This document shows positions 18,001 through 24,000 of a stretch of 64,000 bases of DNA, one piece after another (positions within the stretch are counted from its first letter, which is position 1; each line of letters starts with the position of its first letter). The position numbers were made by a program. This DNA comes from an uncultured Gemmatimonadaceae bacterium (GTDB lineage: Bacteria > Gemmatimonadota > Gemmatimonadetes > Gemmatimonadales > Gemmatimonadaceae), in contig CAWAGQ010000007.1 in the NCBI GenBank assembly GCA_963781585.1, positions 256,001 to 320,000 on the forward strand. The letters are read 5' to 3'.

Positions 18001-21000
18001 GCTTCCAGATCGTCAACGACAACAATGATCCGTTCACCATCAATCCCGCCGGGTTTCATTTCACGTTCGTGGACTTCAAGGTCGACAACGTGGTGAACCC
18101 GATGCGCCAGAAGCTGGCGGCTCGCGGCGAACATCTGTTCGTGAATCTCACCTATGCCGGTGGCAAGACCGCATTCGTGCACTCCTCGAATCCGGAGGAG
18201 TATGCCGAGCTGCTGGTGTACACCTTTCAGCATCTGCAGACGAAATACGGGTGGGTGCCGGATGCCGTCGAAATGGTCCTGGAGCCCGACAACTCGACCA
18301 ACTGGACTCCGGACGCCATCGGCCGTGCGATGGTCGCAACCGGCGACCGACTCGCGGCGGCCGGCTTTCATCCGGCATTCATCGCTCCCTCCAACGTGGA
18401 CGCATCCGCGGCTTTGACCTATTTCGACGGCATCCGCCTGGTCCCCCGCGCGTCCGAGTACCTGACGGATCTGTCGTATCACCGGTACCGCGGGGTCTCT
18501 GCGGGCACGATTCAGGCGATTGCCGATCGGGCCGTCTCGGCCGGCGTGCGCTCCGAGATGCTCGAACACATCGGCAGTGGCTACCAGGATCTCCATCAGG
18601 ATCTCGAGCTCGGCAGAAACTCCGCGTGGGAGCAGTACTCGATCGCGGGGTGCGCCACCACCGATCTCGGGGGACTGTACTACGTGATCGACAAAACGGA
18701 CGTGACGCACCCGGTGGTGCACATCGGCTCGCGGAGCAAGTACCTGCGCCAGTACTTCCTGTTCATCCGGTATGGGGCGATCCGCCTGGGCGCGGTCAGC
18801 GGCGACGCCAGGTTCGATCCGCTCGCCTTCAGGAACACCGATGGCGGGTTCGTCGTGGTGGTGAAGGCGAGTGCCGGCGGGTCGTTCCAGGTGCACCAGC
18901 TCCCGGCCGGCAGGTACGGATTGAAATACACCACCGACGCCCAGTACGGGGTCGATCTGCCGGATGTCACGATCGCCGCCGGCGCACCGCTCGCGGCCTC
19001 GATTCCGACGGCCGGGGTCATCACGATCTATCATCGCTGATCCCTCGTCAGGCGCGGTGCGGGACAGGTGAGGCAGAAAAGAACAGGGCTCCGGTTTCCC
19101 GGAGCCCTGTCGTCGTGCACCAGCGTGGTCGTTCAGATCACTCCCCCCCGCAGTGCGGGAAACCCGTCAGCGTCCCTTCGTTAAAGTTGTCCAGCGACGT
19201 GATCAGGCCGCTCACGCCACCATTGCTCAGGTTGGTCGTGATCGCGGTGCCGCCGGCGATGAAGATGTGCGCGTTGGCGCTGTTGATGGCGGTTTGCACG
19301 GACGCTGGCCCCGATGTGCCGCCGTTCAGGATCGCGCTGATCAGCTGCTGCACGAGATTGAGCAGGTTGTTGCTGGAGAACGTGATGTTCCCCGGCTTGC
19401 CGGGCGTGGCGTTCAGGATCGCCTGCGCCTGCGCGCCAGTCAGGTTCGCGTTGCCGACGTGGATCGTGGTCGGGATGAGCGACGCCGTGTATGCCTGATG
19501 ATTCCGATAGTAGCCCTTCGTGAACGTGCAGCCGGTTGACGGGGGCGTGTACGTGTTTGTGAATGTCACCGTCGATCCGCCGTCGTTCCCGAACTTGCCG
19601 TCCGCCGGGTTCGCGTTGATGGTGCCCTGATTGCCGAGATACGTAACGCTCGTCAACGCCCAACCCGGCTGGGTGGTCTCGGTGATCGTGCCGGTGTATT
19701 TGTCGGTGCCGCTGGTGGGCGTTGTTGCGGCGAGCCGGCACGTGCCGACGTCGATGTTCAGGGAGGTCAGCGCTCCAGCAGGCACAGCAGGCCCGCCTCC
19801 TGGCCCGCGGTGCACGTAGGAAACGTCGAAGTGGAACGTCCCTGCGGCGTTCCCGCTCTTGCATATCCACAGCTCGCCTTCGACCGCCGCCTTGTTGGCG
19901 ATGTCGATCACGTCGCCGACTACAGAGGCCATTGGCTGGATGCTGCCGCGCAGGTTCACGGCGGGAGCGCTGGGTGAATCGGCGCAGGCAGCGAATGCTG
20001 CGAGAGCGCCGAGCGCCAGAGACGCGCGCATAACGCGATTACACAACATGGTCCTTCCTCCGGAATGGGTAGCACTCGTACGCGACCTGGCTGGTCGATG
20101 CCCTTCTTCGGCAGCGGGACGATCTCGCCCGGAGACTCCGCGCTTTGCGCGCCGGCCTGGTGGCCGGGTAGCCATTTCGGAAGGTGCTGAATGAGCTGGC
20201 ACTCGTAAGAGCAACTGACATGCCGTTCGAGCTGGTAGCGGTGCCTATCCCAGTGATGCGGAACGGCGTTGGTCGGCCGCTCATCCCAATCCGCGCAGGG
20301 CGCTTCGCGTGTCCCTTGTCGCCTGTTCGCCGCGGCGGTTGCAGCCACGGCGGGCGGTCGCCGTGCGGACATGGCCCAGCCTCAACGGTGATGGCGGTCA
20401 AATTACTTCGGAACCGGGCGAGTCATGACGGCTGTGCCCGGATGAGCGCAGGGAAAGAACAGGGGCCCGGTTTCCCGGGCCCCTGTTCCTTCCCTGCGGT
20501 GCCGCCGCGCGGACGATCAGTCGTCGCCGCAGTGCGGAAAGCCCGCGAATTTCCCGGAGTTGAAGTTGTCCAAGGCAGTGATCAGGCTGCTGATGCCGGT
20601 CTGGGTCAGGTTCGTCGTGATCGCCTTGCCGCCGCTGATGAAAATGTGTGCGTTGGCGGAGTTGATGGCAGTTTGCACGGACGCCGGCCCCGATGTGCCG
20701 CCGTTCAGGATCGCGCTGATCAACTGCTGCACGAGGTTGAGCAGGTCATTGCTGCTGAACGTGATGCCACCGGGCTTGCCGGGTGTGGCGTTCAGGATCG
20801 CCTGTGCCTGCGCAGCAGTGAGGCTCGCGTTGCCGACGAGAATCGTGGTCGGGATGAGCGCGGCGGTAGCCGTAGCATGATTCCGGTAATAGCCCTTCGT
20901 GAAGGTGCAGCTGCTAGCCGGTGGGGTGTAGGTATTGGTGAACGTCACGATGCTGCCGCCATCGTTACCGAATCGAACAGCCGAAGCGGTTGCCGCGTTT

Positions 21001-24000
21001 TTGTCGACCGTTCCCGGTTCGCTAGTGCTTGTGGCGACGACGATATCCGTCAGCCCCCAACCCTGTGGAGGCGTCTGCTCAGTGATCGTGGCGTGGAAGA
21101 CGTCGCTCCCATTGACATCGGTACTGGCCACCAGATTGCACTCGCCGCTGTTCACATGCACAGTCGTCGGGCCGGAGACCACTCCGTTCTCGTCTGTGAT
21201 GGTGAGGCTGAAGTCGAACTGCACACCGTTCGCCCCGTTGACCGCAACTTTGCACACGGTTAGTTCACCGTCTTTAGGGGCGGTGGCGGACAATCCGCCA
21301 GACCTGAGGGAGGCGGCCGTACTGCGCGCGGCAGTGGGTGGTTCGGCGCAGGCAGCGAGTGCCACCACTGCGCCGAATGCGAGAAACGTGTGTAGCCCGC
21401 TCTTGGTCAACATGTGCGTCTTCCTCCGATGTATGTGGGCACTCGCCACCCAACCAGCCTGGTCGGGCCCCTCTTCGGCAGCGGGACGGTCTCACCCGGA
21501 GATTCCACGCTTTGCGCACCGACCTCGCGGCCGGCTGGCCTTTCTCGGAAGGGAAGAATCGATTCGCTATTGCGACAACAGCACGCATGCGCTCGCTATG
21601 AGCGCGGCGGAAGTTAGCGTACACTAATCTGAATTGCAATCTGCAAGTCCAAGCACCCCAAATACTTCGGAACCGCGACGACTGACCAGGCTGCTTCGAT
21701 GGGGCGCGTCTGGCGGCTTGTCCTGCGGTCTCACCGCTCGCAGTGAGGTGGTTTGTCGCGGCGATTGCCGCGGCCACGCAACGCCGATCAGGGCCTCTCA
21801 GTCAGTCGCGAGATCGCAGGGATCCCCTCCGTGAGATCGCGACCGCGGTGCCGTCAGGCGGGCTGGTCCGGCGCGCCGTTAGGCCGGTCGGTCACGGCGC
21901 CGTCAGGCCGGTCTGTCCGCCGCGCCACCGGGTCGGGTCGCCCGGCTCCCTCGGCGGTGGTCAGCGCCTCTGGAAGGGGCCAGTTTCGCGCGGCAGTATT
22001 CCACCATCCGCGCGATGATGCCGATGGCGCTCTTGTGGCCGGATTCCCGCCGCGGCTGCCCGCTGCGCTATCGGGCCGGTCGCTCGCGGAACACGAATCG
22101 GCTCAAGAAGGCCTGGGCGAAGGGCGACGTTTCAATCGCCGCAGTGTCCAGCGGGTTGTTCCACCACACGCCCTCGCCATTGGCGAGCAGAATGAGGGTG
22201 ACGTGCCGATCGGGCACCTTGAGGAACATCGCCGAGAAGCCGGCCTCCTCATCCCAGGCTGAGTGCCAGAGGAGCCGCTGGCCGCGATACTGCTGGACGA
22301 ACCAGCCGAATGCGTAGGGGAGCGGGGACCCGTCCGGCGCCGTCGCCGGGGTGAAGAGCTTGCGCATGACGGCCGGCGTGCCGAGTCGGCCGTCGTCGAG
22401 GGCGATGTCGAAGCGGGCCAGGTCTTCGACGGTGGAGACGACGCCCGCCCCGCCCTTGAGGGAGCGCTCGGGGCGCACGCGAGCGACGAACGCGTCGTGC
22501 TCCACGCCATATCCCTGCGCCATGTCGAAGAAGACGTCCATCTTCTCGCGTTGCCACTGGCTCGACATGGTGCGCCGCATGCCCGCCGGCGTGAGGATGT
22601 GCGTCTCGACGAGCTGTGCCATCGTGTTCTGGCGTCCCTCCACGTCGCGCACCGAGTGTCCGAACACGTGCTCCAGGTAGCGCGACAGGCGCGAATACAT
22701 CAGCGGGTTGTAGCGAAACCGGGTTCCGGGCTCGCCGTTCACCGTATGGTGCAGGATGTCGCGGATCGTGATGGGCCGATCGCACCGGAGATCGCGGCCG
22801 AAGATGCTGCTCGAAGCCGCCAGGTCGACGCAGAAGGCCCGCTCGTCAGGCACGTCCTGGATGCGATCGTCGAGGTCGACTTTCCCTTCCGCCTCGAGTT
22901 GCAGAAAGAGCAATCCGATGAACGTCTTCGTCAGCGACGCAATCCAGAATGGCGTGTCGGGCGTAACGGGGACCTGGTCACCGACGTCGGCAAATCCGTA
23001 GCCTCTTGCCCAGGCCAGTCGGCCGTCACGAACCACCGCGGCGGCCAGGCCCGGCAGGTGGTGCGTCGCGCGGAGCGAGTCCAGGTCCCGGTCGAACGCG
23101 GCGAACTCGGCGTCAGGCGCGGCGGTCTGGGCGGGCAGCGCGGAGGCTGACGCGGAGCACAGGACGGCCGGGACCAGCAGGACCATGGCAAGGCGCATCG
23201 GAACCTCGGTCGCCGGTGAGATCAGGGGGCGCCTTCGCAAGTTGGACCGGGCGGTCCGATGGCGTCAACCGGCGCCTCCCCATTCCTCGATGATCCTTCC
23301 CAGATCGACGCCGGGCGCGATCAGGCACACGTGTCCATGCCCTTCGAGAATCCGCAGTGACGCGCCCGGCACCCGGCCCGCCATGAACCTGGCCTGGCCC
23401 ACCGACGGCACGAGATGGTCGCGGTCGGCGGCGAGAAAGAGCGCCGGGACGCGAATGTCCGCCAGCCGATCACGCAGGTCGTACTCGGTCAGCATCCGCA
23501 GACGGTCCAGGTATCCTCGACGCGTCGTTAGGCGCGTTTCGGCCAGGAAGCGCCGGATCTCGAGGCGGTGCGTGTGCGGCGAGTGCATGCGGAAGGCCGT
23601 GAGCCGGCGCACCAGCGCCATCGCCCCCCACGGCATCATCCGGATTCCCGCGCGCGCCAGGTGCAGCCGCGCCTGCGGCAGAAACCGCGCGAAGGAATTG
23701 AGCACCACGATGCCCCGCAGGCGCCGGGGATGGGCCAGCGCGTAGCTCAGGGTCAGCGTGCCGCCGAACGATTCGCCCACGAGTACGGCGCGTTGGTCGT
23801 CGGCCGTCACCGCGCGCACGACGCGGTCCAGGTCCCCGACCAGCGCCTCCATGTGCGGCGCATCGTCGCGCAGCGCGTAGGTTACCACGCGAAAGCGGGG
23901 CGCGAGCAGTGGGACCTGGCGATAGAACAGGCGTCCGGTGCCGTCCATGCCCGGCACGTACACCAGCGGCGGACCGGTGCCCGCGATCTGCATCCCGGCG

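Follow-up and report, generated by a model that had tools for sequence, protein, structure and literature searches.

The 64,000-nucleotide stretch analysed here (the window), from the genome of an uncultured soil bacterium of the Gemmatimonadaceae, holds two tandem paralogous lipoprotein genes, g02698 and g02697, behind a c-di-GMP-I aptamer, which raises the question of whether both genes are switched, in which direction, and what kind of protein the switch would deliver. The explanation that we prefer, and to which as a whole we give somewhat better than even credence, is that of aptamer-switched lipoproteins with an isopeptide-type stalk under translational ON control. Each of the two genes, and likewise their paralogue on contig C4, carries its own receptor-less c-di-GMP-I (GEMM-I) aptamer and encodes a lipid-anchored envelope protein, in which the lipidated Cys is followed by a flexible linker, one CnaB-type beta-sandwich stalk domain and a compact helical head (Table 1).

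Table 1. Features of the g02698-g02697 locus, in nucleotides of the window unless residues are stated.
Feature	Position	Strand	Basis
Pyrimidine tract TTCTTCCCTTCCG, 5' strand of P1, proposed anti-Shine-Dalgarno	21546..21558	-	sequence reading, MFE pairing with SD
Aptamer A1, c-di-GMP-I, receptor-less, GCGA loop on first hairpin	21474..21550	-	RF01051 45.2 bits
g02698 60-nt linker / putative expression platform	21414..21473	-	SD GGAGGAAG at 21420-21427
g02698 (P0001), 298-aa lipoprotein	20517..21413	-	gene call, AF2 model
g02698 signal peptide and lipobox	residues 1-22	-	
g02698 CnaB-like domain	residues about 49-164, nt 20922-21269	-	VIA Z 10.9 and 10.4
g02698 helical C-domain	residues 165-298, nt 20520-20921	-	C-domain model pLDDT 95.6
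Intergenic 24-bp perfect hairpin, terminator-like, without T tail	20447..20498	-	sequence reading
Aptamer A2, paralogous to A1, with a non-GNRA loop (ACCA) on first hairpin	20106..20182	-	R1 95.1 bits
g02697 56-nt linker	20050..20105	-	SD GGAGGAAGG at 20053-20061
g02697 (P0002), 303-aa paralogous lipoprotein	19138..20049	-	62% identity to g02698
Terminator-like hairpin, 13 pairs, then CTTTTCTGCC; downstream of g02697	19082..19111	-	terminator scan

The first-pass annotation of this DNA had reported two c-di-GMP-I riboswitches in the genome, both ahead of paralogous genes, and a single one on the contig of the window, followed by g02698 and then g02697. Both RF01051 matches were reproduced, A1 with the same score as before and A3, found in the genome search at C4:656485-656562(+), with 48.6 bits, and at the gathering score (35) the count of two stands. 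It is extended by A2 and by a sub-threshold fourth candidate (C3:321381-321475(-), RF01051 32.4 bits) that precedes a 1389-aa Big_2 lipoprotein. Between A2 and the g02697 start codon lie 56 nt; A2 has no RF01051 match at the gathering score and receives 42.7 bits from RF03167, under the cut-off of 59, and is alignable with A1 and A3. Beside these two Rfam models we used R1, a model of our own, with which A1 scores 94.1 bits. Because A2 sits directly upstream of g02697, after the intergenic 24-bp hairpin, g02698 and g02697 each have their own switch; that hairpin first surfaced as spurious miRNA-precursor matches and was not called by the terminator scan. The helices covary in eight leaders, seven pairs being altered on both sides in a compensatory manner, and the conserved junctions AAAGGC, CGCAAAGC and GCUGCCGAA are retained. 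The genome gives 13 GGDEF matches, and a GEMM subtype with GYRA loops and without the tetraloop receptor is already described in the portion of PMC1950547 cited here.

The association of gene and riboswitch is real but patchy. It had been claimed to recur in relatives, and an aptamer does precede at least 17 of the 65 family matches found in 151 Gemmatimonadaceae genomes (three in genome G000 and 14 in 12 of the 41 relatives carrying the family), but the aptamer is missing at 48 of these matches, at all ten other loci from genome contigs, four of which were repeated with filters off, and at all 76 metagenome loci, 20 of them re-checked with Rfam. Among 31 proteins the aptamer-bearing genes fall into nine separate clades, and 27 of the 30 best c-di-GMP-I riboswitches in Gemmatimonadaceae precede lipoproteins.

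The description of the gene products as an uncharacterised family of paralogous lipoproteins under riboswitch control is borne out by the aptamers, by the identity between the two proteins of the window, by the lipobox present in both (LAAC, FAAC) and by Cys22, invariant in all 103 aligned homologues; the C4 paralogue shares 37% identity across residues 10-182. The lipidated Cys is followed by Ala/Ser and then Asp/Glu, residues that give no indication of membrane or face. The earlier count of 67 homologues, 64 of them without a precomputed Pfam domain, was obtained again, and the family proved larger, with 281 cluster representatives at E<=0.001. The AF2 model of g02698 (pLDDT 87.8) retrieves with Foldseek the same structures as before (Spy0128, PitB, Cpa and a Mobiluncus adhesin; E about 1e-4, TM 0.19-0.28). 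Its residues 49-164 superimpose on the Mobiluncus adhesin 5u6f with a VIA Z of 10.9 (rmsd 2.6 A over 104 residues) and on residues 173..307 of the Spy0128 chain 3b2m with a Z of 10.4, which marks the N-domain as a divergent, CnaB-like domain of the isopeptide type. The former term 'pilin-like' applies to the fold alone: the g02698 product is not a pilin, for it has no LPXTG-type sorting signal and ends in ...FPHCGDD. Nor is the N-domain without known kin, since SpaA_4 matches 6 and DUF5979 matches 5 of 103 family members (E<=0.01), both being listed as K/E/N isopeptide domain families in the part of PMC12617251 cited.

Both proteins are probably switched by the signal and located in the envelope or at the surface, and surface exposure or an adhesive function is what we would propose. 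Their placement facing the periplasm, with an envelope or polysaccharide-related role and no adhesion at the surface, is a competing explanation that we hold to be somewhat improbable. In its favour, the proteins show no secretion, sorting or surface-export feature besides the lipobox, the genes around the locus encode hydrolases (a sulfatase, a beta-lactamase-family protein and an alpha/beta hydrolase), and the C-domain has no adhesin relative; this head domain, modelled with high confidence (Table 1), returned no Pfam or PDB relative in database searches and belongs to no known family. The same head, however, ends two larger stalked lipoproteins, one of 1177 aa and one of 663 aa in which it caps a long stalk made of the family N-domain and three SdrD_B repeats, and both genes sit behind the same aptamer type. 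Other riboswitch targets in Gemmatimonadaceae are mostly Big_2 lipoproteins, and stalk domains of the isopeptide type typically belong to proteins exposed at the surface (PMC12617251), which also argues for the surface.

With regard to the direction of control, c-di-GMP binding would close helix P1, and P1 closure would remove the pyrimidine tract CCUUCC from the Shine-Dalgarno, turning translation ON; the cell would therefore make the proteins when it is sessile and its c-di-GMP is high. What suggests such a translational ON switch is that the Shine-Dalgarno is paired to the strand needed for P1 in the MFE folds of 6 of 8 leaders, that of g02697 pairing with CCUUCC itself. In the A1 leader the duplex of 5' tract and Shine-Dalgarno amounts to -13.2 kcal/mol vs -9.1 with the 3' P1 strand, and in 10 of 13 leaders, several of them orthologues and thus not independent cases, it ranges from -9.2 to -15.9 kcal/mol, similar to the duplex of the 5' tract with the 3' P1 strand. 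We regard as unlikely that the riboswitches are instead OFF switches, or act on transcription (through Rho or linker hairpins) without freeing the Shine-Dalgarno, the proteins being then made at low c-di-GMP. It is true that the complementarity exceeds chance only modestly in ten leaders (top 0.1-15% when ranked among random 16-nt windows taken at those loci) and not at all in three (L064, G008 and G130), that A3 and L064 lack the pairing in the MFE fold, and that in the linkers of L056 and L057 a GC hairpin precedes a stretch partly rich in U. Nevertheless, no intrinsic terminator was found in the leaders, nor any terminator-like site in the two leaders of the window, including the minus strand between A1 and the g02698 start codon, and the known riboswitch-controlled adhesins of such a type are c-di-GMP-induced, as stated in the cited parts of PMC4933901 and PMC6447587.

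In the stalk of these lipoproteins a covalent cross-link would lock the first strand to the last. The Lys55-Glu112-Asn160 triad, formerly called invariant, is nearly so, the full Cys/Lys/Cys/Glu/Asn/Cys/Cys pattern being present in 95 of 106 sequences, and its likeness to Lys-Asn isopeptide domains is supported: in the model the first strand holds K55, a middle strand ends with E112 and the last strand holds N160, an arrangement shared with CnaB-type isopeptide domains, and the end offsets of the VIA ranges, the sole basis of this equivalence, match K55 to K179 and N160 to N303 of Spy0128. In that Spy0128 C-domain the isopeptide bond joins Lys179 and Asn303 (PMC11231552). Both E and N are retained in 96 of the 97 K-bearing sequences, and each of six independent Lys losses is accompanied by loss of Glu or Asn with the four Cys kept, as would follow if the triad were one functional unit whose constraint had been relaxed. 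A Lys55-Asn160 isopeptide bond catalysed by Glu112 most likely forms spontaneously, with a Cys54-Cys92 disulfide probably beside it in the stalk and Cys169-Cys295 probably closing the head. That the triad is a buried polar network or its remnant without covalent bond, Cys54-Cys92 alone stabilising the domain, seems to us fairly unlikely: it would agree with the Pfam scores of the two proteins of the window, far under the cut-offs (12.6 and 15.5 bits vs 25; 9.1 vs 27.3), and with the 8 of 106 sequences that lack one or more triad residues while retaining all four cysteines, but not with the strand positions or the joint losses, and disulfide and isopeptide are likewise joined in the best structural match, 5u6f. 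SpaA_4-type families commonly unite the two within a single domain (PMC12617251).

As for the ligand of these switches, the conserved junction nucleotides point to c-di-GMP, and a class variant sensing something else, e.g. another cyclic dinucleotide, is very improbable. RF03167 (c-di-GMP-I-GGC; 37.8-55.4 bits) does give every family-linked aptamer a higher score than RF01051 does, A2 falls short of both Rfam thresholds and has a non-GNRA loop, and junction letters are changed in two relatives (CAAUG in L061; CAACG and AAACGC in L065). Yet no family-linked aptamer reaches the RF03167 cut-off, and A1, A2 and A3 share CGCAAAGC with the RF01051 consensus where that of RF03167 has CGCGAAGC. All three also keep the G that precedes the GC pair and the CC that follows the last helix, positions which, from the Vc2 structures, we take to set ligand specificity.

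Among known systems, Cap/CbpA is a sortase-anchored protein with CnaB-type stalk domains, and the riboswitch of CD2831 belongs to class II. In Bacillus thuringiensis the class-I c-di-GMP riboswitch Bc2 lies in the 5' leader of Cap/CbpA, as reported in the cited portions of PMC4933901 and PMC7423583, and the proposed arrangement resembles it in its envelope-anchored product and in an output tied to the sessile state. Unlike the large monoderm Cap/CbpA, the proteins described here have about 300 aa, an N-terminal lipid anchor and a diderm host, one stalk domain with a head of no known family, a receptor-less aptamer and a translational-looking platform. CD2831 shares the logic of a riboswitch-switched adhesin and differs also in anchoring, size and phylum. 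An intramolecular isopeptide in a Gram-negative protein is described for Porphyromonas gingivalis Mfa5, a protein of the type-V fimbrial tip that contains a von Willebrand factor domain and for which the portion of PMC7835359 cited mentions no riboswitch. Closer in structure, the Spy0128 C-domain (3b2m) and 5u6f of Mobiluncus mulieris, whose entry title names a disulfide and an isopeptide, have the same beta-sandwich, whose first strand bears the Lys and whose last bears the Asn; identity is 15-18%, and here there is no pilin motif, sorting signal or sign of polymerisation. The weakly matching SpaA_4 (PF24514) and DUF5979 (PF19407) have similar K/E/N spacing, with frequent disulfides in SpaA_4: K55-E112-N160 here compares with K704-E766-N814 in a SpaA_4 example and K610-E680-N715 in 4BUG, as given in the cited part of PMC12617251.

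Each of the two paralogous lipoprotein genes in this locus, g02698 and g02697, is preceded by an aptamer of its own. The first-pass annotation had placed a single c-di-GMP-I riboswitch (RF01051) ahead of the pair and a third copy of the gene behind another such riboswitch on contig C4 of the same genome. The RF01051 matches, the paralogy of the two genes (62% identity between their products, P0001 and P0002) and the C4 copy were all confirmed, as was the pairing of aptamer A1 with g02698; what had been overlooked is aptamer A2 in the 467-nt spacer between the genes, so that there is one switch per gene. 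Since A2 separately precedes g02697, each paralogue would be equipped with its own sensor. A1 was the single match at gathering score in an Rfam scan of the whole window.

Features of the riboswitch-lipoprotein locus and its counterparts on contigs C4 and C3 (positions without a contig name refer to the window)
Feature	Position	Strand	Details
Aptamer A1	21474-21550	-	RF01051 45.2 bits (gathering score 35)
g02698 (P0001, 298 aa)	20517-21413	-	ATG at 21413, 60 nt downstream of A1; SD GGAGGAAG
Perfect 24-bp hairpin	20447-20498	-	3' of g02698, in the intergenic spacer
Aptamer A2	20106-20182	-	56 nt ahead of the g02697 start
g02697 (P0002, 303 aa)	19138-20049	-	Same strand as g02698, next frame
Hairpin with T tail	19082-19111	-	3' of g02697
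C4 paralogue			59 nt behind the C4 aptamer (RF01051 48.6 bits); 37% identity over residues 10-182
C3 candidate aptamer	C3:321381-321475	-	RF01051 32.4 bits (sub-threshold); canonical GAAA loop
1389-aa lipoprotein	C3:317193-321362	-	19 nt downstream of the C3 candidate aptamer

The two hairpins that follow the genes have a common core (CCGGGAAACCGG) and a GAAA loop, the T tail being present in the second only, and may go back to a single terminator-like element that was duplicated along with the gene. The convergent neighbour (17367-19040, plus strand) is the gene of a lipoprotein of 557 aa that contains a single Big_2 domain (E 6.4e-10); no riboswitch was found for it at gathering score. The other neighbours are a sulfatase (15228-17081), a beta-lactamase-family protein (22068-23240) and an alpha/beta hydrolase (23265-24326), all on the minus strand.

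The A1 and C4 aptamers pass the RF01051 gathering score. A2 stays below it and also below the cut-off of RF03167, the c-di-GMP-I-GGC family (42.7 bits against 59), and scores 95.1 bits with R1, our own covariance model, which was built in part from A2 itself. It aligns end to end with A1 and the C4 aptamer, shows compensatory changes in the first hairpin and has an orthologue at the same position in a genome of the same genus (G070); judged by its sequence, A2 is a clear paralogue of A1. The family-linked aptamers have the architecture of the RF01051 class, with two hairpins joined by AAA, and show both its covariation (7 of the 23 pairs predicted across eight leaders carry changes on both sides) and its conserved junction nucleotides. 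The junctions CGCAAAGC and GCUGCCGAA are conserved among them, and the junction letters agree with the RF01051 consensus (CGCAAAGC) and not with that of RF03167 (CGCGAAGC); our statements on the 'GGC' variant come from comparing the consensus lines of both Rfam models, its definition not having been found in the literature searched. Because the junction positions are those that make the ligand contacts in the Vc2 structures, c-di-GMP is expected to be the ligand of the family-linked aptamers. The genome has 13 GGDEF matches, and therefore c-di-GMP is presumably made by the bacterium. These aptamers represent a short form, in which the loop of the first hairpin is GCGA (A1, C4) or ACCA (A2) and the second hairpin consists of a simple GUCUC...GAGAC stem, lacking the tetraloop receptor that the top-scoring aptamers of related genomes have; with a GYRA loop, according to the description of the GEMM motif, a receptor almost never occurs (PMC1950547). 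In two relatives an aptamer lies 337-379 nt ahead of the family gene (L061 2778-2852, minus strand, in G003; L065 1082-1156, plus strand, in G128) and has altered junction letters (CAAUG in L061; CAACG together with AAACGC in L065); both switches may be in decay or may have been re-specified.

All three leaders of the source genome have the pyrimidine tract CCUUCC as the 5' strand of helix P1; the 3' strand of P1 reads GAAGA(A/G)GG and the Shine-Dalgarno (SD) sequence GGAGGAAG(G). Minimum-energy folds pair the SD with the 5' tract in six of eight leaders. In 10 of 13 leaders the duplex of the 5' tract with the SD has an energy of -9.2 to -15.9 kcal/mol, and in the eight leaders for which it was calculated that of the 5' tract with the 3' strand of P1 has one of -7.6 to -10.6 kcal/mol; several leaders are orthologues and thus not independent cases. 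As a control, the 5' tract:SD energies were ranked against every 16-nt window of these GC-rich loci: the ten leaders came within the top 0.1-15%, and the other three did no better than chance. Since the 5' tract can pair with either the SD or the 3' strand of P1 at comparable energies, we infer an ON switch, in which P1 stabilised by c-di-GMP would take up the 5' tract, the SD would be freed and translation would proceed; we give this anti-SD model about an even chance of being right. An intrinsic terminator serving as the platform was rejected, none being called between aptamer and start codon. The RNAalifold consensus of the whole leader resolved the aptamer only, because the linker aligns poorly.

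The signal peptides of P0001 and P0002 end in LAAC and FAAC, respectively (residues 19-22), which corresponds to a lipobox of the form [LVI][ASTVI][GAS]C as judged by eye and with a regular expression; Cys22 is kept in every one of 103 aligned homologues, and Ala21 is nearly invariant in this alignment. An AlphaFold2 model built on this alignment (mean pLDDT 87.8) has residues 1-44 disordered, a beta-sandwich at about 49-164 and a helical domain at 165-298. The list of pilin and adhesin structures that Foldseek had returned in the first-pass annotation was reproduced (probability 1.0, E ~1e-4), with TM scores that are low because one domain only aligns. VIA-align on residues 47-165 assigns this domain to the CnaB-type beta-sandwich fold (Z 10.9, 10.4 and 9.8), the best match being 5u6f, an adhesin of Mobiluncus mulieris (rmsd 2.6 A over 104 residues at Z 10.9), and each of the seven chains at Z>=8 is a pilin or adhesin domain. 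In the match to Spy0128 (3b2m, Z 10.4) model residues 49..164 fall on chain residues 173..307; the end offsets place Lys55 on Lys179 and Asn160 on Asn303 given gapless first and last strands, an equivalence drawn from the alignment ranges and not from a residue-level alignment. Lys179-Asn303 is described as the isopeptide pair of that Spy0128 domain (PMC11231552). In Pfam the gathering scores were missed (DUF5979, 12.6 and 15.5 bits against 25; SpaA_4, 9.1 bits against 27.3), and at E<=0.01 six of the 103 family members match SpaA_4 and five DUF5979; a 2025 survey treats both as CnaB-like Lys/Glu/Asn isopeptide families and mentions disulfides as frequent in SpaA_4 (PMC12617251). NCBIfam held no match for P0001 or P0002.

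The arrangement of the putative triad is that of isopeptide domains, with a conserved Lys in the first strand, a Glu, and an Asn in the last strand: in the AlphaFold2 model Lys55 lies in strand 50-58, Glu112 at the end of strand 105-112 and Asn160 in strand 154-162. Conservation of these residues was examined in 106 sequences, namely the C4 paralogue and those 105 of 202 proteins that have a lipobox-like start and a length of 265-335 aa. The triad had been called invariant, and its conservation is borne out, its strict invariance is not, the full C54-K55-C92-E112-N160-C169-C295 pattern being present in 95 of the 106. Leaving out P0059, P0136 and P0137, whose rows are partial or misaligned, Lys55 is absent in six of 103 sequences, all of which keep the four cysteines and also lack Glu112, Asn160 or both, while 96 of the 97 Lys-bearing sequences retain both partners. 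A FastTree phylogeny places the six sequences without Lys in as many separate lineages, each of them closest to sequences in which the triad is complete. Joint loss in six out of six lineages is as expected if the three residues act as a unit, and an isopeptide bond between Lys55 and Asn160 probably forms.

The helical C-terminal domain, folded alone (20520-20921 of the window, 90-row alignment), gave a pLDDT of 95.6 and a pTM of 0.91. Searches with it returned generic helical bundles and designed proteins in VIA (best Z 5.2 among 48,161 chains), a best E of 0.87 in Foldseek, 'hypothetical' clusters only in the ESM Atlas (0.92) and nothing below E 0.07 in a profile search of PDB sequences; the domain is thus without a convincing relative in these searches, an absence that is no proof of a new fold. 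Its outermost conserved residues are Cys169, the first, and Cys295, the last. Many database matches span this domain alone, joined to other N-terminal parts or in up to five copies; it is a mobile module. Some relatives have three to five copies in one chain of 479-583 aa (P0118, P0130, P0193), and others (252-435 aa, with a signal peptidase I-type signal, ...ASA|H) combine it with unrelated N-terminal parts. The domain also closes two larger lipoproteins whose genes follow an aptamer of the same type: one of 663 aa (G039), in which a stalk like that of the family (VCK...VTE...FTN) and three repeats of SdrD_B (E 2.8e-101) come before CTYTQGYWKTH...PHCD, and one of 1177 aa (G143) in which Pfam gave no match. 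Such a position, at the tip of a stalk with a lipid anchor, is where one expects a binding head, and it is the sole basis on which the proteins may be read as adhesins.

The term pilin-like holds for the fold, to which both VIA and Foldseek attest, and fails for the pilin: the proteins are anchored by an N-terminal lipobox and end in ...FPHCGDD or ...FPHCGGE, with neither an LPXTG signal nor a hydrophobic tail, and no sortase was found among the neighbours scanned. Because the sorting signal is absent, the proteins are not sortase-assembled pilins. Precedents in the Firmicutes, as described in the sources consulted, are the Bc2 riboswitch with Cap/CbpA of B. thuringiensis (PMC4933901, PMC7423583) and CD2831 of C. 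difficile, an envelope-anchored adhesin switched by a c-di-GMP riboswitch; they have in common with our locus the logic of a c-di-GMP riboswitch switching an envelope-anchored protein, and isopeptide domains are also recorded from Gram-negative bacteria (PMC7835359, PMC12617251). What is new is the combination of a diderm lipoprotein anchor, a single divergent isopeptide-type stalk and an unmatched head, together with a receptor-less aptamer duplicated with its gene and a probable translational platform. At about 300 aa, these proteins offer a test case for whether isopeptide-locked stalks work on diderm lipoproteins, and for what the confidently folded, unmatched C-terminal domain binds. The riboswitch provides a regulatory handle on an uncharacterised family of 281 cluster representatives without a name, hinting at the condition, high or low c-di-GMP, in which its members are produced.

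Across 151 Gemmatimonadaceae genomes, the source genome included, RF01051 was found at gathering score in 123 and the protein family in 42; four unpublished genomes (G007, G033, G034, G133) are counted in both figures and in the tallies of R1 hits, and G007 adds one riboswitch-less family match; no further claim depends on these four. Scanning 29 loci of relatives with Rfam revealed an aptamer in 7 of 16 and in 0 of 13, to which model R1 adds two. Degenerate aptamers in nine riboswitch-less loci were considered and rejected, the best score of a filter-free search being 11 bits. When the 65 listed protein matches were crossed with 50 R1 hits, picked by eye out of a list of 150 for lying in family-bearing genomes, an aptamer lay upstream of at least 17 of the 65, three in the source genome and 14 in 12 of the 41 relatives; since just these 50 hits were crossed, the figure is a lower bound. 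Beyond the 151 genomes, related loci were searched with a 20-sequence alignment as query, and an aptamer was present at 0 of 10 family loci from a species-wide genome collection and at 0 of 76 metagenome loci, many of them on contigs too short upstream to judge; an Rfam re-check of 20 metagenome loci with long upstream flanks found no aptamer either. In a rough tree of 31 family members from the Gemmatimonadaceae, the genes with a riboswitch fall into nine distinct clades, a distribution that suggests either that the association is old and was lost several times or that it was gained repeatedly. Two family genes have an in-frame TAA (G092:C19:25270-26154, locus L066, and G008:C268:32101-32709) and are possibly pseudogenes; a direct search found no aptamer at the former, and there is none for the latter among the listed R1 hits.

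The pairing extends beyond this family. Among the best 30 of 358 RF01051 hits in relatives (loci L021-L050), 27 lie 3-34 nt ahead of the first in-frame start of a product that begins with a lipobox signal, the exceptions being a receiver-GGDEF protein, a locus without a clear frame and a contig end. The 28 products scanned contained Big_2 (18), GH6 (three: L033, L042, L045), a beta-helix (one), a receiver plus GGDEF (one) or nothing (five). The survey suggests a family-wide riboswitch-to-lipoprotein regulon in the Gemmatimonadaceae, and the proteins studied here would therefore be one branch of it. Our full-text literature search brought up no publication on c-di-GMP riboswitches from this little-studied phylum of soil bacteria, and the pairing would offer a cheap route to charting its c-di-GMP regulon; this phylum-wide lipoprotein regulon and the C-terminal domain are the best leads. 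It is tempting, if rather doubtful, to speculate that c-di-GMP-I riboswitches might be a main c-di-GMP output of the Gemmatimonadaceae, remodelling a lipid-anchored envelope set (Big_2, GH6 and the present family), in which the family would be a minimal 'lipid anchor - isopeptide-locked stalk - head' adhesin and the disulfide-closed head a new binding domain also carried on long SdrD_B-type stalks.

In one relative (G011) a c-di-GMP-I riboswitch of 79 bits precedes a gene for a response-regulator receiver plus GGDEF protein (L030 554-1489, minus strand), possibly as a feedback loop on c-di-GMP synthesis. In the source genome, the candidate aptamer on contig C3 is probably a fourth riboswitch; the lipoprotein encoded behind it has four Big_2 stretches in its first 494 residues (E 6e-43), and its C-terminal region has, by eye, the look of a right-handed beta-helix.
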